DNA of 64,000 bases, taken from contig CAWHFW010000005.1 of the NCBI GenBank assembly GCA_963828735.1, positions 1,184,001 to 1,248,000 on the forward strand, in the 5' to 3' direction. Origin of the DNA: an uncultured Gemmatimonadales bacterium (GTDB taxonomy: Bacteria > Gemmatimonadota > Gemmatimonadetes > Gemmatimonadales > GWC2-71-9). Shown here piece after piece: positions 11,648-62,114 of this stretch (within the stretch, counting starts at the first letter, position 1; the number at the start of each line of letters is the position of its first letter). Both the position numbers and the translations under genes were made by a program. The notes under the pieces are model-generated. The model was given only the letters and a program-made list of their open reading frames with translations. It did no database searches and was not told the DNA's origin.

Positions 11648-12048
11648 TCCTCGCCGCGTCGGCCTGCGGCAACGAAGCCACCGCTCCGAATCCGGTCCGC
11701 CCCGGCAGCGACTTCGGCTCGGGGACCAGCAGCAGCGGCAGCGAGACGGCGACGATCGTAGGGGTGTGGCAGGCCGTGATCGTGGTGCAGGTCCCCGGCG
11801 ACGTCCAGACCTGGACGACGACCTGGCAGTTCGACGCGGACGGAAGCTGTCGCCAGACGCGCGTCACCGAGTCGCTCGCGGAGGGGTTCCCGCGGACGAC
11901 GGTTCTCGCATGCACCTGGACCATCACCGGCACCCAGCTCCAGATCGCCTTCGCGGGCGGGGGCACGCTCGTCATGGAGTTCTCGTTCGCGGGCCTGTCG
12001 CCCGATCGGCTCGTGCTCGATGGCTTCGAGTACCAGCGGCAGTCCTGA
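11626..12048 (+). CDS. Hypothetical lipoprotein (lipocalin-like beta fold)
   Basis: Lipobox-like ILAASA|CG; IVGVW motif; start uncertain. Confidence 0.6.
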   Translation: MALLVSLILAASACGNEATAPNPVRPGSDFGSGTSSSGSETATIVGVWQAVIVVQVPGDVQTWTTTWQFDADGSCRQTRVTESLAEGFPRTTVLACTWTITGTQLQIAFAGGGTLVMEFSFAGLSPDRLVLDGFEYQRQS

Positions 12049-13261
12049 CGCCGACGCGGCCGTCGACGTCCTCGTCGTCGGTGCCGGGCCCGGCGGGAGC
12101 GCGAGCGCCGCGCTGTTCGCCGGGATGGGATACCGCGTCCGCGTCGTGGATCGCGCGGCCTTCCCCCGCGACAAGGCCTGCTCGGAGTACATGAGCCCGG
12201 AAACGGTCCGGCTGCTCGAGCGGTTCGGCGTGATGCCCGCGCTCGAGGCGGCGGGCGCCCCGCTTCACGGCACGGTGGTGACCGCGGCTCGGGGCAGCCG
12301 CCTGCACGGCCGGTTCGCGCTCGCCGGGCCACCGCCGTCCCGACCGACGGGGCTCTCGGTATCGCGCCGCATCCTGGACCACGCGCTCCTGGACGCGGCG
12401 CGGCAGGCCGGCGCCGAGGTGTCGGAGCGCACCGCCGTGGACGAGCTGCTCTACGATCGCGGCGCCGTGGCCGGCGTCGTCGCCCGCGACCACGAGGGCC
12501 GTCGCCGCACCATGCGGGCACGGCTCACGGTCGGCGCCGATGGGCTGCGCTCCGTCGTCGCCCGGCGGATCGGCCGGCGCCGGCACGGGCAGCCCCGCCG
12601 ACTCGCGTTCGTCGCCCACGTCGATGGCGTGACGGGCATGGACGGCTCGGCAGAGCTCCACGTCGGCCCGCACGGCTACGCGGGACTCAACCTGATCGGC
12701 GGGGAGCGCACCAACGTCGCGCTGGTGGTCCCGGCCATCCGGGCCGTCGAGGCGCGTGGGAGGAGAGAGGCCTTCTTTCGAGAGGCGCTCGACGCGTTCC
12801 CGGGCGTGGCCGCGCGCGTCGGCGGCGGCCGCCTGGTGCGGAAGGTGCTCACCACCGGGCCGTTCGCCGCCTGGTCGGGACGAGTCGTCGCCGACGGCGC
12901 GGCCCTGGTGGGCGATGCGGCGGACTTCTTCGATCCGTTCACGGGCGAGGGGATCTACAGCGCGCTGCTGGGCGCCACGCTCCTCGCCGACACCGCGGGT
13001 CGAGCTCTCGACGGGCGCGGCCCGGTCACCGCCGGACAGCTCGCGGCGTATCGGCGCGCCCGCCGGCGGGCCTTCGCCGGCAAATGGGCGGTGGAGCGGC
13101 TGATCGGCTACGGCATGCTCTTTCCGGCGCTCTTCGATCGCGCCGTCGAGCGACTCGGCCGCCGGCCCGGCATGGCCGACACGCTCGTGGGCGTCACCGG
13201 CGACTTCGTGCCCGCCCGCCGGGTGCTCAACCCGCTGTTCCTCGCGAGGATGCTGCTCTGA
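12020..13261 (+). CDS. FAD-dependent oxidoreductase, geranylgeranyl-reductase family
   Basis: VVGAGPGG, FPRDKAC, VGADG, LVGDAADFFDPFTGEGI. Confidence 0.88.
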   Translation: MASSTSGSPDADAAVDVLVVGAGPGGSASAALFAGMGYRVRVVDRAAFPRDKACSEYMSPETVRLLERFGVMPALEAAGAPLHGTVVTAARGSRLHGRFALAGPPPSRPTGLSVSRRILDHALLDAARQAGAEVSERTAVDELLYDRGAVAGVVARDHEGRRRTMRARLTVGADGLRSVVARRIGRRRHGQPRRLAFVAHVDGVTGMDGSAELHVGPHGYAGLNLIGGERTNVALVVPAIRAVEARGRREAFFREALDAFPGVAARVGGGRLVRKVLTTGPFAAWSGRVVADGAALVGDAADFFDPFTGEGIYSALLGATLLADTAGRALDGRGPVTAGQLAAYRRARRRAFAGKWAVERLIGYGMLFPALFDRAVERLGRRPGMADTLVGVTGDFVPARRVLNPLFLARMLL

Positions 13262-13740
13262 GCCAGACCGCGATCGATCCCGCACGCTTCCGCCAGCTGC
13301 TCGGCCGCTTCGCGACGGGCGTCACCGTTCTCACGGTGCGCGATCCCTCGGGGCAGCCGGCGGGGATGACCGCGAGCAGCCTGGCCTCCGTGTCGCTCGA
13401 GCCGCCGCTCGTCTCGGTGTGCGTGGACCACACGGCCGACCTGCACGACCTCATCATCGCCGCGCCCGAATTCGTGGTGAACGTGCTGGAGAGCGCCCAG
13501 GAGGAGCTCTCGCGGCGCTTCGCCGACCAGCATGACGACCGGTTCGCCGGCGTGGGCTACCACCTCGGACCCGACGGCCAAATCCGGCTGGACGGCACGC
13601 TGGCGCACATCGAGTGCGAGCGGTTCGCCACCTATCCTGCCGGCGACCACACGATCGTGATCGGTCGGGTGATCGGAGGCGACGCGCACGACGGGCATCC
13701 TCTCCTCTACTATCGCGGCGGCTACGCCGCCCTCACGTGA
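13258..13740 (+). CDS. Flavin reductase family protein
   Basis: FRQLLGRFATGVTV, SVSLEPPLV, GDHTIVIGRV, PLLYYRGGY; probable CTG start. Confidence 0.88.
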   Translation: MSQTAIDPARFRQLLGRFATGVTVLTVRDPSGQPAGMTASSLASVSLEPPLVSVCVDHTADLHDLIIAAPEFVVNVLESAQEELSRRFADQHDDRFAGVGYHLGPDGQIRLDGTLAHIECERFATYPAGDHTIVIGRVIGGDAHDGHPLLYYRGGYAALT

Positions 13741-14444
13741 CGTCGCTCGAGCCCCTGGCCGTGAGCGGTGTGGGTGCCGAGCTGCTCGACGATCCGACGG
13801 CCGATCCGGTGACGGTCGCCGCCTCGCTCCGGGACATCTCGCGGGCCAACCGATGGTTCGGCGGCGCGGCCGCGATGCGCCGAGGCCTGCGGAGCGCGCT
13901 GGACGGCGTTCCACCCGGATCGGTGCTCACCCTGGCGGACCTCGGAACCGGCCTCGGCGATCTGCCCCGCGCGGCGATGCACTGGGCGGCACGCCGGGGC
14001 CTCCGGATCGTGCCCGTCGGCCTCGAGCGGAGCCCGGTGGCGGCTCGTCTCGCGCGGGACGGCGGACTGCCGTGCGTCGTGGGCTGCGCGGGGATCGCGC
14101 CGTTTCGGGACAAGTCCGTGGATGTCGTGATCGTGAGCCAGGTAGTGCACCACCTGGCTCACGATTCGGCGGTCCGGCTCTTCCAGGCCTGTGACCGCCT
14201 CGCCCGCCGCGCGGTGGTGGTAGCCGACCTCCGTCGCGGCTGGCTTGGCCCGCTCACCTTCTGGGTCGGCGCCCGGGCGCTCCGGTTCGACCCCGTGACG
14301 GTGGCCGACGGCATGACCTCGCTCCGCCGCGGCTACACCGCGGCGGAGCTCCGTGCCCTGCTCGAGGCGGCCGGCGTTCGCGCAACGGTTGAGCGGCGTC
14401 CGGGCTATCGCCTCGTCGCCACCTGGCGCCCCGTGGCGTCCTGA
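13737..14444 (+). CDS. Class I SAM-dependent methyltransferase domain protein
   Basis: ADLGTGLGD SAM motif, VVHHL, DLRR, DGMTSLRRGYT. Confidence 0.82.
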   Translation: MTSLEPLAVSGVGAELLDDPTADPVTVAASLRDISRANRWFGGAAAMRRGLRSALDGVPPGSVLTLADLGTGLGDLPRAAMHWAARRGLRIVPVGLERSPVAARLARDGGLPCVVGCAGIAPFRDKSVDVVIVSQVVHHLAHDSAVRLFQACDRLARRAVVVADLRRGWLGPLTFWVGARALRFDPVTVADGMTSLRRGYTAAELRALLEAAGVRATVERRPGYRLVATWRPVAS

Positions 14445-14902
14445 TGCGGACCGTCGACGCCATCCGGATGCGTGCGCCGGCCGCGCGGGTGCTCGAGGCC
14501 GCGGTGGACGTCGAGCGCTGGCCCGCGCTCCTGCCCCACTACCGCTGGGTGCGCCGCCTCGAGCGTGAGGGCGACGGCGGCCTGGTGGAGATGGCGGCCT
14601 GGCGACCGTTTGGCCCGGTCAGGTATCCGACGTGGTGGGTATCGGAGATGCGCGTGGACCGCGCGGCGCATGCGGTGCACTACCGCCACGTGCGCGGCGT
14701 CACGACGGGGATGGACGTGGTGTGGCAGATAGCGTCCGTCGGCGAGGCGACCGACGTGACGATCGTGCACGAGTGGACCGGGCCGCGGTGGCCGCTGATC
14801 GGAAGCGCTGCCGCCGCATGGGTGATCGGCCCGGTGTTCATCCATGGAATCGCATCGCGGACGCTCGAAGGCATCCGGCGGGCGGTTGAGAGGGAGACAT
14901 GA
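14444..14902 (+). CDS. SRPBCC/polyketide cyclase-aromatase family protein
   Basis: DVERWPALLPHY; GMDVVW; VTIVHEW START-fold pattern. Confidence 0.78.
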   Translation: MRTVDAIRMRAPAARVLEAAVDVERWPALLPHYRWVRRLEREGDGGLVEMAAWRPFGPVRYPTWWVSEMRVDRAAHAVHYRHVRGVTTGMDVVWQIASVGEATDVTIVHEWTGPRWPLIGSAAAAWVIGPVFIHGIASRTLEGIRRAVERET

Positions 14903-16146
14903 GCGAGCCGCGGCGGGTGGTGGTGACGGGCATCGGGGCGATCACGCCCATCGGACTGGGGGTGGACGGGCTGTGGGACGGACTGCGGCGACGGACGTCG
15001 GCGGTCCGCTGCATCACGCGGTTCGATCCGACCGTGTTCAAGTCGCGGATCGCCGGCGAAGTCCCGGATTTCGTGCCGACGGACCACATCGAGGAGCGCC
15101 GAGCCCGGCGCCTCGACCGGTACTCCCAGTTCACCATTGCCGCCACCCGTCTGGCGTTGGGCGACGCGGCGCTCGATCTCAAGCGCGAGGATCCCGATCG
15201 GGTCGGGGCCATGATGGGCACCGCGCTGGGCGGCGTGGCCCATGGCGAGCAGAACTACCACGCGTTCCTCACCGAGGGGCCACGCGCGGTCGATCCCGCG
15301 CTCGCCCTCACCGTCTTCGCTGGCGCCGCCAGCTGCAACATCGCAATCGAATTCGGGTGCACCGGCCCCAACTCCACCAACGGGATGAGCTGCGCGTCCG
15401 GCGCGATCGCGATCGGCGACGGATTTCGTGCCATCGTCCGCGGCGACGCCGACGTGATGATCACCGGCGGGGCCGAGGCCCCGCTCGCGCCGCTCTGCTT
15501 CGGCGCCTTCGCGATCATTCGGGCGATGTCCACCCGCAATGACGATCCCGCCCACGCGAGCCGCCCGTTCGACGCGGGACGTGACGGCTTCGTCATGGCC
15601 GAGGGGGCGGCGGTGTTGGTGCTCGAAGAACGCGGGCGAGCATTGGCGCGTGGCGCGCCGGTGTACGCCGAGATCTGCGGGTTCGGGTTGACCAACGACG
15701 CGCATCACATGACGGCGCCCCGGCCGGATGGGCGCCAGGCCGCGCGCGCCATGCAGAACGCGCTGACCGAGGCGCACGTCTCGCCGGGCGAGGTGGGCTA
15801 CATCAATGCGCACGGCTCGTCCACGCCGCTGAACGACCCGACCGAGACCTCGTCGATCAAGCAGGTCTTCGGCGACAGCGCGTACCGGGTCCCCCTGAGT
15901 GGGACCAAGGGATACTACGGCCACGCGCTCGGCGCGAGCGGCGCGATCGAGGCGGCGATCTGCGCGCTGGCGGCGCGGCGGGGCTGGCTGCCGCCCACCG
16001 TCAACCTGGAGACGCCGGACCCCGCGTGCGATCTTCCGCTGGTCGTGGGCGATGGCCGCGACCTCACGCCAGACATCATCCTCAGCAATTCGTTCGGGTT
16101 CGGGGGCATCAACGCGGCGCTGGTGTTTCGGCGGATGGATGCCTAG
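14899..16146 (+). CDS. fabF: Beta-ketoacyl-ACP synthase II-like ketosynthase
   Basis: RVVVTGIG, SCASG (catalytic Cys), INAHGSST, GHALGASG, SNSFGFGGINA; C-H-H triad intact. Confidence 0.88.
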   Translation: MSEPRRVVVTGIGAITPIGLGVDGLWDGLRRRTSAVRCITRFDPTVFKSRIAGEVPDFVPTDHIEERRARRLDRYSQFTIAATRLALGDAALDLKREDPDRVGAMMGTALGGVAHGEQNYHAFLTEGPRAVDPALALTVFAGAASCNIAIEFGCTGPNSTNGMSCASGAIAIGDGFRAIVRGDADVMITGGAEAPLAPLCFGAFAIIRAMSTRNDDPAHASRPFDAGRDGFVMAEGAAVLVLEERGRALARGAPVYAEICGFGLTNDAHHMTAPRPDGRQAARAMQNALTEAHVSPGEVGYINAHGSSTPLNDPTETSSIKQVFGDSAYRVPLSGTKGYYGHALGASGAIEAAICALAARRGWLPPTVNLETPDPACDLPLVVGDGRDLTPDIILSNSFGFGGINAALVFRRMDA

Positions 16147-17062: not shown

Positions 17063-17185
17063 CTACCCCCGCAGTGCCCGCTTCACCCGTCCCACCAGCG
17101 ACACCAGGTACCCCACCAGGATCACCGGGGCGACAATGTACGCGGCCAGCATGTACCCCGCGTTGTGAGGAGGCTCAGACAGCAT
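17063..17185 (-). CDS. ccmD: CcmD-like small membrane protein (40 aa, absent from ORF track)
   Basis: MLSEPPHNAGYMLAAYIVAPVILVGYLVSLVGRVKRALRG; single TM helix, basic tail; overlaps the ccmC end. Confidence 0.6.
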   Translation of the reverse strand: MLSEPPHNAGYMLAAYIVAPVILVGYLVSLVGRVKRALRG

Positions 17186-17873
17186 CGGTCGCCTCGTCTC
17201 GCGCGTCCTCGGCCAAGGCCAGGCCGTAGCGCAACGTCACCAGGCCGATGTACAGCAGGGTGAACACCAGCATCGAGATCAACAGCGTGCGCAGCATCTC
17301 GGGCGGGAGCGACGGCGCGCTCGGCTTGAGGACCACCGGTTGCGGATGGAGCGTCCGGAACAGATAGACGCTCAGATGAATGAAGGGCACGAGCAGCATG
17401 CCGAGAATGCCGACCACCGCGCTGAACCGAGCCCGCTCGGCCGGATCGTGCACCGAGGCGCGGAGGGCCAGGTAGCCGACGAAGAGGAAGAACAGGAACA
17501 GCGTCAGCGTGAGGCGGGCATCCCAGGTCCACCAGGTGCCCCAGATCGGCTTGGCCCAGATCGGCCCCGTCGTGAGCATGACGGCGCTGAATGCCACGCC
17601 GACCTCCGCCGAGGCGGCGGCGAACCGGTCCAGTCGCGGGTCATGCAGCCAGAGGTAGAGCGCGGAGGTGAGGCCCACCAGCATGAAGGCCATCAGCGCG
17701 CACCACGCGGCGGGCACGTGAAGATAGAAGATCTTCTGCGCCACGCCCTGGCGAGCCTCGATGGGCGTGTAGCGCAGCGCCAACACGTACACGCCCGCGA
17801 GTCCCACCAGGGCCGCCACGCTGATGCGGAGTCCGCGCCGCGTCAGCGCGCGCGCCGCTTCGGCCGTCGTCAT
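17175..17873 (-). CDS. ccmC: Heme exporter/cytochrome c maturation protein C
   Basis: KIFYLHVP, WAKPIWGTWWTWDARLT (WWD domain), RTLHP. Confidence 0.92.
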   Translation of the reverse strand: MTTAEAARALTRRGLRISVAALVGLAGVYVLALRYTPIEARQGVAQKIFYLHVPAAWCALMAFMLVGLTSALYLWLHDPRLDRFAAASAEVGVAFSAVMLTTGPIWAKPIWGTWWTWDARLTLTLFLFFLFVGYLALRASVHDPAERARFSAVVGILGMLLVPFIHLSVYLFRTLHPQPVVLKPSAPSLPPEMLRTLLISMLVFTLLYIGLVTLRYGLALAEDARDEATDAV

Positions 17874-18551
17874 TCGTCCACCACCGCCGCGAAGGCCATC
17901 GTGCAGAGGGTCACGAACACCACGTCGTAGAGAGCAAGGAGTCTAAGCCATCCCAGCATCTCGCTCAACGGACGTCCGGCGAGCAGGCGCGAGGTGACCT
18001 GCACGGCGCCGATGAGCGGCGGCACCATGAACGGCAGCAGCAGCACCGGCAACATGAGCTCGGCGAACCGGGTGCGCACGGCCATCGCGCTGAAGATGGT
18101 GCCCACCGAGACGAAGCCAATGGTGGCCAGGGCCGTCACCCCGACGATGCCCGGAAGCGAGGCGCTCAGATCCACGTTGAAGAAGAGCACGAACAGTGGC
18201 AGCGTCACCGCCTCGACGGTGCCGACGAAGGCCAGATTGGCCAGCAGCTTGCCCAGGAACAGCGCGCCGCGCGGCACCGGCGCGAGCAGCAGGCCGTCCA
18301 GGGCGCCGTTCTCGCGCTCGATGGTGAAGGCGCGGTTGAGCGCGACCATCGCCGCCAGCGCGAAGGTCACCCACAGGACGCTCGGCGCCAGATCGGTCGC
18401 GGCCAGCGCCGTCGGGTCCCGCGCGAAGTTGAACACGACGAGGACGCAGGGCCGCGAAGACGACCGCCGACAGCAGCGCCGTGCGGCTCCGCAGCTCGGC
18501 CCGAATGTCCTTGCCCGCGATGGCGAGCGCGAGCCGGAGCGCGTCAGGCAC
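17870..18551 (-). CDS. ccmB: Heme exporter protein B (apparent +1 frameshift near 18446)
   Basis: N-terminus KDIRAELRSR in one frame; LNRAFTIERENGALDGLLLAP, LPVLLLP in another; one extra base in GCC CTG C GTC. Confidence 0.85.
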
Positions 18552-19263
18552 TGATCCACTCCCGGTAGCGCGGGAGAAACGCGGCGAGCGATCCCGCCCT
18601 GGCCTCGTCGCACACCCAGCGGCCGTCCACCATCACCGCGATGCGTGTCGCCAGGTCCCACACCTCCGCCAGATGGTGGGTGACGACCACGAGCCCCAGG
18701 CCCTCGTCGCGGCGCGCGCTCAGGTCCGCGCGCAGGCGATCGGCCGACGGCGCGTCGAGCGCCGTGAAGGGCTCGTCCAGCAGCAGCACCCGCGGGCCGT
18801 GAAGCAATGCCCGCGCGATGGCGGCCCGCTGAAGCAGGCCGCGGCTCAGCCTGCGCGGCAGGTCGCCCGCCCGCGCCTCGAGGCCGGCGGACTCGAGCGC
18901 GCGCCGGGCGGCGGCGGCGGGGCGTTCGAGCCCGTACAGCCGCGCGGCGAACGTGAGATTCTCCGCCAGCGTGAGGTCGTCGTAGAGGAGCGACTGGTGC
19001 GACAGCAGTCCGATTGCCCGTCGCGTCTCGGCGCTGCCGCCGGCGAGCGAACGCCCGAGCACGCGCACCTCGCCGGCAGCGGGTCGCATGAGCCCGGCGA
19101 GCACCCGCAGCAGCGTGCTCTTCCCCGCGCCGTTCGGACCCGCCACGGCCAGCACCTCGCCCGGGGCGAGGGTCAGCGTGATGTCGTTGAGGACGCGGAC
19201 GCGGCCGAAGGAGCGGCGGATGCCCCGGGCGGCAAGAAGAGGCTCGCCGTCATGAGACGGCAT
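18544..19263 (-). CDS. ccmA: Heme exporter ATP-binding protein A
   Basis: GPNGAGKST, LSRGLLQR, LLLDEPFTALD; adjacent to ccmB. Confidence 0.88.
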   Translation of the reverse strand: MPSHDGEPLLAARGIRRSFGRVRVLNDITLTLAPGEVLAVAGPNGAGKSTLLRVLAGLMRPAAGEVRVLGRSLAGGSAETRRAIGLLSHQSLLYDDLTLAENLTFAARLYGLERPAAAARRALESAGLEARAGDLPRRLSRGLLQRAAIARALLHGPRVLLLDEPFTALDAPSADRLRADLSARRDEGLGLVVVTHHLAEVWDLATRIAVMVDGRWVCDEARAGSLAAFLPRYREWISA

Positions 19264-19618
19264 CGATGCGCGCGCCGAGCTCGTCGAGACGGAAGGGTTT
19301 GACGATGTAACCGGAGTGGGGGAGATTGAGAACCTTGAGCTGGGGTTCGATGCTCATGTAGGCGGTGGTGATGATGACGGGAAGGTCCGGCTGGGTCAGG
19401 CGGATGCGCCGCAACAGCTCGACGCCGTCGGTATCCGGGAGCCGCATGTCGAGCACGGCCACGTCGGGGGGCTGCTGCTCGAGCAGCTCGAGCGCTTCGG
19501 CGCCGGTCGAAGCGAAGACCAGGTCGTAACGTGGCTGGAACGCGCGCTCGTAGCTCAGTCGCAACGCGGGCTCGTCCTCGACGATCAGGACGCGCCGGCG
19601 GCGCTTTCTCTGCGTCAT
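19250..19618 (-). CDS. Single-domain response regulator
   Basis: VLIVEDE, VLDMRLP, ITTA, VKPF. Confidence 0.85.
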   Translation of the reverse strand: MTQRKRRRRVLIVEDEPALRLSYERAFQPRYDLVFASTGAEALELLEQQPPDVAVLDMRLPDTDGVELLRRIRLTQPDLPVIITTAYMSIEPQLKVLNLPHSGYIVKPFRLDELGARIDAVS

Positions 19619-19744: not shown

Positions 19745-20059
19745 TCAGTCATAACTCGACTCGACGGAGAAGAGGTCGTAGAGCTTCGTCATGGTGAGGA
19801 GGAACCGGAGCTCCTCGCTCGGATTGCGGAGTATCACCGGCTGGCGTCGCTCGGCCGCGAGGCGCTGGATCAGCATGAGCGCGCCCAAGCCCGCCGAGTC
19901 GATTTCCTTGGTGTGTGTGAGATCGATGACCAGTCGGCCGGAGCCTTCGGGCATCTCCTCGAGCAGCTGTTCCGCCGCCTCGCGGATCGCGACACGTGTC
20001 TCCAGGCCGAGCGTCTCCGGCGCGGCCAGACCACGTTCCAACGCCTGCGGGGTCCTCAT
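19745..20059 (-). CDS. STAS domain protein (anti-sigma factor antagonist-like)
   Basis: LVIDL...IDSAGLGAL phosphoacceptor motif; AAGGAGG SD. Confidence 0.85.
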   Translation of the reverse strand: MRTPQALERGLAAPETLGLETRVAIREAAEQLLEEMPEGSGRLVIDLTHTKEIDSAGLGALMLIQRLAAERRQPVILRNPSEELRFLLTMTKLYDLFSVESSYD

Positions 20060-20065
20060 CCATCC

Positions 20066-20156
20066 TCCTTCGGCACCGAGCTATCTCACCATCGACCGGT
20101 GAGACCTCTAGTTTTGCGGCCCCGGATCACTCCGGGTGTGCTCTTATCGGGCGGAT
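20066..20156 (-). ncRNA. GEMM-I (c-di-GMP-I family) riboswitch, A20 variant (3',3'-cGAMP-type)
   Basis: CGAUAAGAGCACA-CCCGGA-GUGA-UCCGGG-GCCGCAAAACUAGAGGUCUCACC...GGUGAGAUAGCUCGGUGCCGAA: P2 with GNRA loop, GCAAA junction, P3 and terminal GCCG. Confidence 0.85.
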
Positions 20157-20199
20157 CGACGCCTTGCCGCAGGTCAGTTGCGGCTGCGCCCCCGAGAAA

Positions 20200-20216
20200 G
20201 GCGAGTCTGGTGCCAA
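20200..20216 (-). promoter_or_regulatory. sigma54 -24/-12 promoter upstream of riboswitch/STAS gene
   Basis: Minus strand TTGGCACCAGACTCGC, GG-N10-GC. Confidence 0.65.
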
Positions 20217-20426
20217 GCGCTCCAAGACTATGTCAGTTAATGGCTTACAGGTTGGTTCACAACACAAAGTGCGACCGGTTGCGCCGCACTCCGCGGCATT
20301 CTACCGCAAAAGAGACGTGAGGGTAAGAGGAGCGGTCGAGCACGCCGTCTGCGAGTCCTCCATTGCAGGGTCTTCGTCCCGCGTTCTGTCGTCACGCCTC
20401 GCGCGAAATCATGCAGTCGATGATGC

Positions 20427-22369
20427 TCAAAACTGAATCTGCGCGCCAAGCTCGACGACGCGATTCGGCGGCAAGCCGAAGAACGCCGTCGCGGAGCGCG
20501 CGTTCCTGGTCATCAGGATGAAAAGCTTCTTGCGCCAGAGCGACATGCGGCCGAAGCCGGCTCCATCGGACGCCGCGCCGGCCTTCGCGCCGGCCCGCGT
20601 CGCGATGAGCGTCTCCCGTCCCAGGTAGAAGCTGGTTTCCATCACCTTCACACTCACCGGCTTCCCATTCCCCCCTGAGCGGCCAAGCGCCTGCAGGACC
20701 GCCGGAACATCGGGTGTCTCCATGAACCCGTAGTGGGCGATCACTTGGTAGAACCCTTCGCCGAGCTCCTTGCAGGCCACCCGGTCGTCCTGGTCCACCT
20801 GCGGGATCTCCTCGGTCACCACGGACAGCAGCATCACCTTCTCGTGGAGCGTCTTGTTGTGCTTGAGATGATGCAGGAGCACCGGCGGAACACCGCCCGC
20901 ATCGGAGGTGAGGAAAACCGCCGTACCCGGAACCCGAGGCGGCTTCCGCGCTCGATGTCGGCGAGAAACAGGTCCATGGGCAGCGTATTCTCGCGCACGA
21001 TCGCGGCAAGGCGCGCCCGCCCGCGATTCCAGGTCGTCATGAGCGTATAGATGCCGAGAGCCACCACGAGCGGGAACCAGCCACCCTGTTGGATCTTGAC
21101 GAGGTTGGCGGCGAAGAACGCGCCGTCCACGGCGAGCAGCAGGCTGGTGAGCGCCCAGGATCGAGGGCCCGGCCAGCCCCAGAGGTCGCGCGCGACGGTG
21201 TGGAACAGCAGCGTCGTGATGATCATCGTGCCGGTGACCGCGACGCCGTAGGCGGCCGCCAGGTTGGTGGAGCTCTTGAATCCGATCACCAGCGCCAGGC
21301 ACCCGAGCCAGAGCGCCTGGTTCACCTCCGGGATGTAGATCTGGCCCATCTCCGTCTTGGAGGTGTGAATGATGGTGACCCGCGGACTGTAGCCGAGCTG
21401 CACCGCCTGTCGGGTCAGCGAGAAGGCGCCGGAGATGAGGGCCTGCGATGCGACGATCGCCGCCGCGGTGGACACCACGACCATCGGATACAGACCCCAC
21501 TCGGGCACGAGCGAGTAGAACGGATTGACCGCCGCCTCAGGGCGCTCGAGCAGCAGGGCCGACTGGCCGAAGTAGTTGAGCAGCAGGCAGGGCAGAACGA
21601 GCACGAACCAGGTCATCCGGATGGGCCGTTTCCCGAAATGGCCCATGTCGGCGTACAGCGCTTCGGCTCCCGTCATCACCAGGACGACCGACCCCAGGAC
21701 CAGGAAACCCTGGACTCCATCGCGGGCGAAGAGCTCGATGGCGTGCACCGGGTTGACCGCCGTCAAGATCGACGGGTTCATCGCGATGCCACGGAGGCCC
21801 AGCAGCGCGATGCTCGCGAACCAGACTGTCATGATGGGCCCGAACACCCGGCCGACACCCATCGTCCCTTGCCGCTGGAAGAGGAAGAGCACCGTGAGGA
21901 TCACCACGGCGAGGGGCCACACGAAGCGGTTGAAGGCGGGCGTGGCTACGCCGATCCCCTCGATGGCGCCCAGCACCGAGATCGCCGGCGTGATGACGCC
22001 GTCTCCGTACAGGAGCGCCGCGCCGAACAGTCCGAGGCTGATGAGGATGGCTCGCGCGCCCTTGGCTCGCGTCCGCGGGCGCACGAGGGCCAGCAGCGCG
22101 AGGATGCCGCCCTCGCCCCGATTGTCCGCCTGCAGCACGAAGGTGACGTACTTGAACGAGACCACGAAGTTGATCGACCAGAAGACCAGCGACATGACGC
22201 CGAGCACGTTCTCGCGGGTCGCCGGGATGCTGTGGTGTCCCGCGAAGCACTCCTTGAGCGCATAGAGCGGGCTGGTGCCGATGTCGCCATAGACGACGCC
22301 CAGAGCCGTGATGCACAACGCCAGGAGCGGGAGCCCCTTGGGAGGTACCTTGCCCGTCGCGGTGGACAC
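20427..22369 (-). CDS. kup: Kup/HAK/KT potassium transporter (apparent -1 frameshift near 20948)
   Basis: GVVYGDIGTSPLY, ADNRGEGG, GAEALYADMGHFG; C-terminal RVPGTAVF...VVELGAQI continues in a second frame. Confidence 0.92.
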
Positions 22370-22821
22370 TAGCGCGTTCCGGCGACCGGCGCGGGTGCGG
22401 TCGCTCCGACCCGCTTGAGCTCGAGCAGCGACAGGATAAGGATGGTCACGATGATCGCCGCCGAGCCGACGCACCAGCGGCAGATGGCGTGGATGACGAA
22501 CAGCTCGAGGGACGTGAGATAGATGGTGAAGAGCACGCCCCCCGCGGCGAGCGCCGCGAGCGCGAGAGCGGGCTCCCGTCGCTCCGTGTAGGCCGGGCGG
22601 AGGGCGAGGAGGGCCACGAGCAGGAGCGCCGCGTAGCCGAGGAGGCCGATGAGCGCCACCTCCACACCGAGGAAGCGGCTCCACTCGCTTGTCTGAACGG
22701 TCTCGCAGCCCCCCGTACCGCAGGCCAGCGTGCCGATTCGACCAATCTTATAAAGGTAGAGGTAGGCCGACACGAAGAGCCCGAGCAGGCTCATGAGCGC
22801 CGCGCCCATTCGGTAGATCAT
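22369..22821 (-). CDS. Vitamin K epoxide reductase (VKOR) family protein
   Basis: C-x4-C loop (CGTGGC) and CRWC redox motif; four TM helices. Confidence 0.88.
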   Translation of the reverse strand: MIYRMGAALMSLLGLFVSAYLYLYKIGRIGTLACGTGGCETVQTSEWSRFLGVEVALIGLLGYAALLLVALLALRPAYTERREPALALAALAAGGVLFTIYLTSLELFVIHAICRWCVGSAAIIVTILILSLLELKRVGATAPAPVAGTR

Positions 22822-62010: not shown

Positions 62011-62029
62011 ACCGGGGTCGAACAATTCG

Positions 62030-62077
62030 TTCGTGGCGATTTGCGCTGCTTGCGGCCACGTTAAACAACCGCTAAAA
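62030..62077 (+). ncRNA. SAM-II (SAM-alpha) riboswitch aptamer
   Basis: CGUGGC-GAUUUG...GCUUGCG-GCCACG-UUAAACAAC-CGCUAAA: P1 CGUGGC/GCCACG plus pseudoknot strand; upstream of metH. Confidence 0.88.
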
Positions 62078-62082
62078 CGCAT

Positions 62083-62114
62083 CCCTTGAGGCGTTTTGGC
62101 TTCAGGGGTTTTTT
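62083..62114 (+). terminator. Riboswitch-controlled intrinsic terminator
   Basis: CCCTTGAGGC...GCTTCAGGGG + TTTTTT. Confidence 0.8.

Follow-up and report, generated by a model that had tools for sequence, protein, structure and literature searches.

The window, a 64,000-nucleotide stretch of a contig from an uncultured Gemmatimonadales bacterium, carries on its minus strand a gene for a stand-alone STAS protein, which is preceded by a riboswitch leader and a predicted sigma54-type promoter (Table 1). The gene is the head of a conserved cluster, in which it is followed by a single-domain receiver and by ccmA, ccmB and ccmC of cytochrome c maturation. A hairpin and about 125 bases separate the STAS and receiver genes. 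The first-pass annotation had recognised the STAS gene and considered the organism a probable member of the Gemmatimonadota. Both points hold, since two Pfam profiles score over their cut-offs and all 80 of the closest STAS loci are titled Gemmatimonadales or Gemmatimonadota. The protein has two characters of the SpoIIAA/RsbV type: its STAS domain stands alone and it has a phosphorylatable serine, which is kept in 80 of 80 orthologs. With TIGR00377 it scores 30.8 bits, below the cut-off of 53.45. The partner-switching role proposed for the protein is suggested by this serine, but no partner could be assigned to it: neither a kinase nor a sigma factor is encoded adjacent to the gene, and HATPase_c_2 proteins are present elsewhere in the genome. 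A frameshift interrupts both ccmB and the gene of the kup potassium transporter (20427-22684). In relatives the matches to the two halves of kup are contiguous, and both frameshifts are probably indel errors of long reads.

Table 1. Features of the STAS locus in window coordinates. Counts refer to 80 orthologous STAS loci; those of neighbouring genes are limited by loci ending at 2.5 kb.
Feature	Position	Strand	Basis
sigma54-type -24/-12 motif (GG 20214-20213, GC 20202-20201)	20201-20215	-	motif in 77/80 loci
5' hairpin of the leader	20166-20184	-	fold; conservation
5' strand of extended P1 (C13 = 20149, G14 = 20148)	20148-20160	-	fold and leader alignments
GEMM-I/c-di-GMP-I aptamer (RF01051), three-helix junction	20069-20152	-	cmscan and compensatory changes
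A20 (G in Vc2, A14 in Gs1761)	20142	-	sequence and Rfam alignment
C92, pairs with ligand guanine	20073	-	sequence and Rfam alignment
Shine-Dalgarno (20064-20068) and start codon (20057-20059), 3' strand of extended P1	20057-20068	-	sequence, alignment, fold
STAS protein, stand-alone, 104 aa, anti-anti-sigma motif serine	19745-20059	-	Pfam STAS_2 42 bits, STAS 34.5 bits, both over cut-off
Single-domain response-regulator receiver	19250-19618	-	adjoins STAS gene in 78/80 loci
ccmA, heme exporter ATPase	18544-19263	-	TIGR01189 over cut-off; 77/80 loci
ccmB, frameshifted in the assembly near 18450	17870-18551	-	Pfam CcmB; 72/80 loci
ccmC, cytochrome c assembly protein	17175-17873	-	profile match; 71/80 loci

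Within the window alone the GG-N10-GC motif of the promoter is not above chance, with 2 matches against 0.79 expected and 17 of 100 shuffles reaching 2. It is conserved in place upstream of the orthologous STAS genes, whether the aptamer is present or absent; two of the three loci that lack it are truncated and the third has C for the first T of the motif. One copy of sigma54 is encoded in the genome. Conservation in place and the presence of the sigma factor are what is expected of a sigma54 promoter, and the promoter claimed in the first-pass annotation is upheld as a motif. At sigma54 promoters the usual spacing from motif to start is about 12 nt, and on this basis transcription is predicted to start near 20190. 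The 5' hairpin of the leader is paired in 91.7% of cells across 48 leaders, and two of its six pairs are changed on both sides. The unconstrained fold of the leader is no better than that of shuffles (z -1.07). RNA contigs from 4 of the 16 listed runs cover the aptamer and the STAS gene, one of them corresponding to 19904-20158, and another (20022-20235) crosses the promoter; these contigs have neither strand nor start, may originate from DNA and are not counted as evidence.

The leader RNA is a genuine GEMM-I-family riboswitch by fold. When the whole window was searched with cmscan, RF01051 (c-di-GMP-I) was the best-scoring family of its clan at the aptamer and matched it over its full length; the score of 49 bits (E 1.5e-6) exceeds the gathering threshold of 35. 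The c-di-GMP-I fold read earlier from the letters thus passes the covariance check proposed for it. The GUGA tetraloop and P3 (GUCUC/GAGAU) were confirmed on the sequence and the Rfam alignment, as were the G21-C46 pair (20141/20116), the C22-G45 pair and A47 (20115). Bases are numbered as in Vc2. C92 is invariant in both leader alignments, one of short leaders and one of a diverse set. The diverse set comprises 20 leaders: that of the window, the paralogous L001, and 18 taken from 25 parsed loci after exclusion of L420, L423, L425, L427, L430, L435 and L087. In this set 10 of the 28 pairs of the P1-P2-P3 junction are changed on both sides; none of 500 shuffles is as high. The contacts A47 and C92, the location 5' of a gene and the presence of an expression platform are all as in RF01051.

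The base at position 20 had been claimed to be A, and it is. The G20 of a strict c-di-GMP reading is therefore absent. Position 20 reads the alpha nucleotide of the ligand, as described in PMC6140456. An A at this position, which the leader has, is a mark of GEMM-Ib, membership of which would hinge on selectivity for cGAMP.

The combination of promoter, A20 aptamer and STAS gene is widespread. The aptamer could be parsed in 57 of the 80 STAS loci, and position 20 is A in all 57. Two further loci end inside the aptamer, and 21 have no aptamer but retain the promoter motif, at a distance of about 30-75 bases upstream of the gene. The sister family has the same unit in two genomes: in G037, where ccmA and ccmB follow, and in G384. 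The unit is thus an old one, which some genera have probably lost.

The Shine-Dalgarno sequence of the STAS gene itself forms the 3' strand of P1. The arrangement was examined in 48 short leaders, consisting of the window and 47 of 55 aligned short-leader loci. In all 48, the Shine-Dalgarno sequence is invariant and abuts the aptamer, the core of which is also invariant, and the extended P1 reaches the start codon too. Three bases of the 5' strand of P1 differ in five of these leaders, and at each of the three pairing is preserved or becomes better; covariation inside the 48 near-identical leaders is no stronger than in shuffles (65-128 of 500). When the binding-competent fold is forced, the modelled accessibility of the Shine-Dalgarno sequence drops in 39 of the 48 leaders, from a median of 0.30 to 0.21. 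The modelled switch is small, and the Shine-Dalgarno sequence is modelled as largely paired even without ligand. Because the ribosome-binding site is a strand of P1, the ligand would likely turn translation of the STAS gene off in the short leader. Neither this platform, predicted to be translational, nor the cytochrome c maturation cluster had been noticed in the first-pass annotation.

The leaders of other genera are built differently. The 3' strand of their P1 is not a Shine-Dalgarno sequence, and they are 45-110 bases longer. In 19 of 20 A20 leaders of other genera, a segment complementary to the 5' strand of P1 is situated just before the Shine-Dalgarno sequence (18 found as the best duplex in a scan run without a shuffled control, and one by motif). 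Such an anti-P1 element implies an ON switch in the long leaders, and its absence from the short leader implies OFF, both polarities being predictions from the arrangement of the platforms. The energy model of the long leaders gives no uniform direction, with a Shine-Dalgarno sequence that is more open in 6 and less open in 4 of the 17 scored, 8 of 25 having been skipped. A 5' anti-P1 helix was considered for the short leader as well and rejected: the bases that could form it are located upstream of where transcription is predicted to start, and they show no covariation.

Twelve RF01051 matches, nine of them over the cut-off, were found in the genome; position 20 is A in five, G in five, C in one and U in one, and the search for other A20 aptamers suggested in the first-pass annotation thus gave a positive answer. 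Other A20 copies precede lipoprotein-like genes, as G20 copies do. One A20 aptamer (G000:C3:219743-219828; L001, L136) is a near-identical paralog of that of the STAS leader. Behind it come a terminator-like hairpin and then genes for a lipoprotein-like and a TPR-HD-GYP (RxxK) protein, and its platform is apparently transcriptional. A degenerate A20 aptamer (G000:C5:763965-764039) lies before a weakly PilX-like gene. In orthologous PilX-like leaders (L391-L415), many of which have a sigma54 motif as well, position 20 is A or G, and in G071 there are six tandem copies of the gene; among 20 such loci six aptamers could be parsed, three with A and three with G at position 20. Five aptamers with a long P3 insertion, four G20 and one A20, are found at G000:C5:1048203-1056704, each before a different predicted exported protein. 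The aptamers at C5:459397, C5:2524696 and C5:1573752 have C20, U20, and G20 together with U92, respectively, the last under a sigma54 motif.

The earlier description of A20 as the hallmark of cGAMP-preferring riboswitches did not survive, as the base is not diagnostic. According to PMC6140456, all three A20 aptamers measured bind cGAMP (120 nM, 463 nM and 0.5-70 nM), and they range from the selective Gs1761 to the c-di-GMP-preferring Cbe 1-2: Cbe 1-2 binds c-di-GMP at 30 nM against 463 nM for cGAMP, and the G20A mutant of Vc2 at 53 nM against 120 nM.

The distribution of the base among genomes is in keeping with this. The genomes G037 (100% complete), G384, G045 and G305 have A20 aptamers, yet all of their intact GGDEF domains have Asp at the specificity site (29 matches read). 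In G037, G384, G043 and G039, none of the HD-GYP domains that could be parsed has RxxQ, several domains being unparsed. The SMODS profile of CD-NTases (PF18144), which does not represent all CD-NTases, matched neither the genome itself nor any of five outside genomes, G037 and G384 included. In the sister family, A20 is found in 6 of the 20 best-scoring aptamers, and a non-Asp GGDEF pattern in none of 53 genomes. Three of six sister-family hits to the A20 pattern (G322, G329 and G399) were discarded as false since P3 is missing. In three other sister-family A20 aptamers (L324, L325 and L327) the base that follows A47 is changed and P1 is flanked differently, and their genomes are without a non-Asp GGDEF. 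G132, assembled as one contig, combines an A20 aptamer and RxxQ without a non-Asp GGDEF.

Within the family of the organism, the A20 pattern was found in 82 of 201 genomes. A non-Asp GGDEF accompanies it in 73 of these 82, against a background of 180 of 201, which is no enrichment, and among the 45 family genomes that encode at least two non-Asp GGDEFs only 7 have A20; these counts were tallied by hand and come from kin that are not independent. Co-occurrence of A20 and enzyme within the family is uninformative because the enzymes are almost universal there.

A few deltaproteobacteria are the organisms in which Hypr-type cGAMP signalling has been characterised, and the rule used to look for it is that Ser or Thr is present at the specificity site. 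Eight full-length GGDEF domains are encoded in the genome, six of which have the canonical Asp. The search for a Ser/Thr enzyme proposed in the first-pass annotation did reveal one with Ser and GGDEF, the membrane protein C5:2314234-2314695, which is of the Arg type at the cross-dimer site, sits on a long branch and is sporadic: only 2 of 36 genus genomes have a relative at E<=1e-22, and Asp is found in each of the 10 nearest homologs retrieved. The Arg type is reported to make more c-di-GMP (PMC6456294). This enzyme was accordingly rejected as the conserved partner of the genus-wide A20.

A better candidate is an enzyme with 4Fe-4S and hydrogenase-like input domains (C5:1083620-1085338). It was aligned to the structure 6D9M, which is GacA (Gmet_1914) of G. 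metallireducens (PMC6456294), and has Tyr at Y304 and Asn at S348, with intact GGDEF and RxxD I-site. It thus resembles GacA in its aromatic cross-dimer residue, its GGDEF motif with central Asp, its I-site and its non-Asp specificity residue, and differs from it in having Asn in place of Ser348 and in having its input domains where GacA has a receiver. Besides the residue at the site of PleD D344 and GacA S348, Hypr enzymes are recognised by a GGDE[F/Y] motif and a non-Arg cross-dimer residue, as stated in PMC6456294. By its signatures the candidate is like a Hypr GGDEF in the motif and in the Tyr, but departs from the Ser/Thr rule; it also has Thr at the usually conserved Asn before the Tyr. 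No description of a GGDEF with Asn at this site was found in the literature searched, in which tests reported in the original Hypr paper or its supplement could be missed.

The Fe-S-GGDEF is well conserved. Of the 36 genus genomes, 25 have an ortholog at E<=1e-60; Asn and Tyr are found together in all 24 parsed genus loci (6 of 30 loci are incomplete) and in 117 of 120 database homologs; and in 27 of 29 genus loci the gene is immediately preceded by that of a sigma54 activator. A quick tree was made of 95 GGDEF domains, most near-identical genus orthologs having been thinned out; there the clade of the Fe-S-GGDEF comprises 30 members with Asn, 3 with Ser and none with Asp. A separate clade comprises 20 members with Ser and one with Asn, accompanied by a GacA-like Tyr or His, and four of its members are MASE1-GGDEF proteins. 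The best PDB match of one Ser member from each clade is 6D9M. The exchange of Asn and Ser to the exclusion of Asp suggests that both residues may serve the same purpose. A non-Asp GGDEF pattern is found in 180 of 201 family genomes, and two more Fe-S orthologs missed by the pattern have Asn too; in a draw from the whole phylum it is found in 104 of 114 genomes of the family versus none of 53 of the sister family.

In the genome itself, the Fe-S-GGDEF gene is part of a cluster at C5:1080964-1086969 (L134), which consists of the sigma54 activator (frameshifted in the assembly), the Fe-S-GGDEF, an unknown but conserved protein and an HD-GYP protein with RxxR; the activator and the unknown protein stay adjacent across the family. 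The MASE1-GGDEF clade with the GacA signature of Ser, Tyr or His, and GGDEF (L233-L274, for example L266, L238, L263 and L248) is found in many genera of the family. These genera are mostly without the A20 switch, so that any readers of cGAMP there would be proteins or other RNAs.

A candidate for the removal of cGAMP is the receiver-HD-GYP protein C5:1377851-1378888, in which Gln stands opposite K317 of PmGH. RxxQ at this position is the signature of PmxA (bioRxiv 10.1101/600031). It replaces Rxx(K/R), as Rxx(Q/N) does in enzymes of the PmxA type, and is kept in 33 of 33 orthologs; all five parsed paralogs have RxxR, as do all six parsed sister-family HD-GYP homologs, 6 of 20 extra loci being unparsed. 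The RxxQ pattern was found in 173 of 201 family genomes, some chance matches included. This putative cGAMP phosphodiesterase shares RxxQ at the position of PmGH R314/K317 with PmxA of Myxococcus xanthus (MXAN_2061) and is unlike it in being a cytoplasmic receiver-HD-GYP instead of a Cache-TM-HAMP-HD-GYP protein. Three of five active candidates were selective for cGAMP, and some RxxQ enzymes cut both dinucleotides (bioRxiv 10.1101/600031).

The cGAMP signalling proposed by the first-pass annotation is therefore backed in part, by the Asn/Tyr GGDEF, by the RxxQ HD-GYP and by the Ser GGDEFs of GacA type that other genera in the family have; against it stands the occurrence of the same unit in the Asp-only G037 and G384. 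The reading which we prefer, with a probability of roughly one half, is that the leader is a dual sensor of cGAMP and c-di-GMP. A sigma54 activator would license transcription of the leader. The cGAMP in the cell would be made by the family-wide Fe-S-GGDEF, itself encoded behind a sigma54 activator, and would be removed by the RxxQ HD-GYP. A20 would confer a response to cGAMP while weakening, not abolishing, that to c-di-GMP, and would distinguish the aptamer from the switches with G20 that the genome also has. Once bound, the aptamer would lock P1 over the ribosome-binding site and start codon, and translation of the STAS gene would cease. The output would be the level of phosphorylatable STAS protein, and polar effects on ccmABC are possible.

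The strongest competitor, which we consider rather doubtful though far from negligible, is a switch for c-di-GMP only, in which A20 lowers affinity so that the response occurs at higher c-di-GMP than that of the G20 switches, and any cGAMP acts through protein receptors. It would account for the complete unit in G037 and G384 in the absence of any cGAMP-type enzyme, for the frequency of A20 among the top sister-family aptamers and for the flips between A and G at the PilX-like locus; it also agrees with the predominance of Asp among the GGDEF domains of the genome and with the tighter binding of c-di-GMP by Cbe 1-2 and Vc2 G20A (PMC6140456). It has to contend with the expectation that an A20 aptamer binds cGAMP wherever cGAMP is present, with a candidate synthase and a candidate phosphodiesterase in about nine of ten family genomes, and with the lack of any reversion of A20 among the 57 orthologs, in which, admittedly, hardly any base of the core varies. 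Should it be true, A20 is not to be read as a marker of cGAMP.

A selective GEMM-Ib sensor of cGAMP, like Gs1761 and Gm0970, within a cytochrome and pilus regulon of the Geobacter kind is unlikely. The genome does combine A20 with a candidate synthase and a candidate phosphodiesterase, and the cytochrome c maturation target and the A20 copy before the weakly PilX-like gene recall Geobacter targets (PMC6456294). Such selectivity is hard to reconcile with the A20 hosts that have no candidate enzymes (G037, G384, G045 and G305), with G132, with the missing enrichment in the family, with the A/G flips and with the lipoprotein-like genes shared by A20 and G20 copies, and A20 alone does not decide ligand preference in the reported measurements (PMC6140456). 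That the ligand turns the STAS gene on, or that the short leader no longer switches, is very improbable: the anti-P1 elements of other genera and the Shine-Dalgarno sequence modelled as largely paired without ligand would speak for it, but the short leaders have no such element, their Shine-Dalgarno sequence abuts the aptamer and takes the place of the P1 3' strand, and the core invariant in 48 of 48 argues against decay.

The proposed dual sensor has parallels among known systems. With Vc2 of V. cholerae (RF01051) the STAS leader shares the fold, G21-C46, A47 and C92, its A20 being as in the G20A mutant; it differs in a natural, lineage-wide A20, a sigma54 leader and a STAS-receiver-ccmABC target. 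Vc2 exerts translational control through P1 (PMC9262584), and the same is predicted for the STAS leader. The Geobacter GEMM-Ib aptamers (Gs1761, Gm0970, pilM) likewise have A at position 20, a Hypr-like GGDEF in the host and cytochrome-related targets. The pilM switch, however, is a transcriptional ON switch (PMC9262584), whereas the STAS leader is predicted to be a translational OFF switch, belongs to a different phylum and is accompanied by a conserved candidate synthase with Asn and not Ser. Cbe 1-2 of Clostridium beijerinckii is the comparable case of a natural bispecific A20 aptamer outside Geobacter, and the sister-family A20 copies likely behave like it; the Gemmatimonadales family contrasts with it in having a candidate cGAMP synthase and phosphodiesterase.

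For this large family as a whole, we tentatively suggest, with the odds somewhat against it, that these soil Gemmatimonadales run a complete cGAMP circuit, in which an Fe-S-gated GGDEF with Asn and an aromatic residue and an RxxQ phosphodiesterase act on an A20 switch that gates the STAS-ccm cluster under sigma54, and in which ON has been flipped to OFF in the genus by loss of the platform. In the literature searched, no description was found of cGAMP with GGDEF or of a c-di-GMP riboswitch in Gemmatimonadota, in agreement with the first-pass annotation, which knew of none in the lineage, and no relevant description was found of a riboswitch controlling a STAS gene. If Asn works, the Ser/Thr rule misses a synthase in about nine of ten family genomes, and a phylum abundant in soil is added to the range of cGAMP signalling. 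The orthologous aptamers, which occur in hosts with and without candidate cGAMP enzymes and beside G20 copies in the same genomes, provide a natural test of the meaning of A20, and this test also spans long (predicted ON) and short (predicted OFF) platforms.

Two other observations were made in the window. On the plus strand, 12020-16146 holds a small cluster of genes for a FAD-dependent monooxygenase, a flavin reductase-like and a methyltransferase-like protein (these two named from translations only), a polyketide cyclase and a ketoacyl synthase. A SAM_alpha riboswitch match with 41.7 bits is located at 62023-62092, also on the plus strand.
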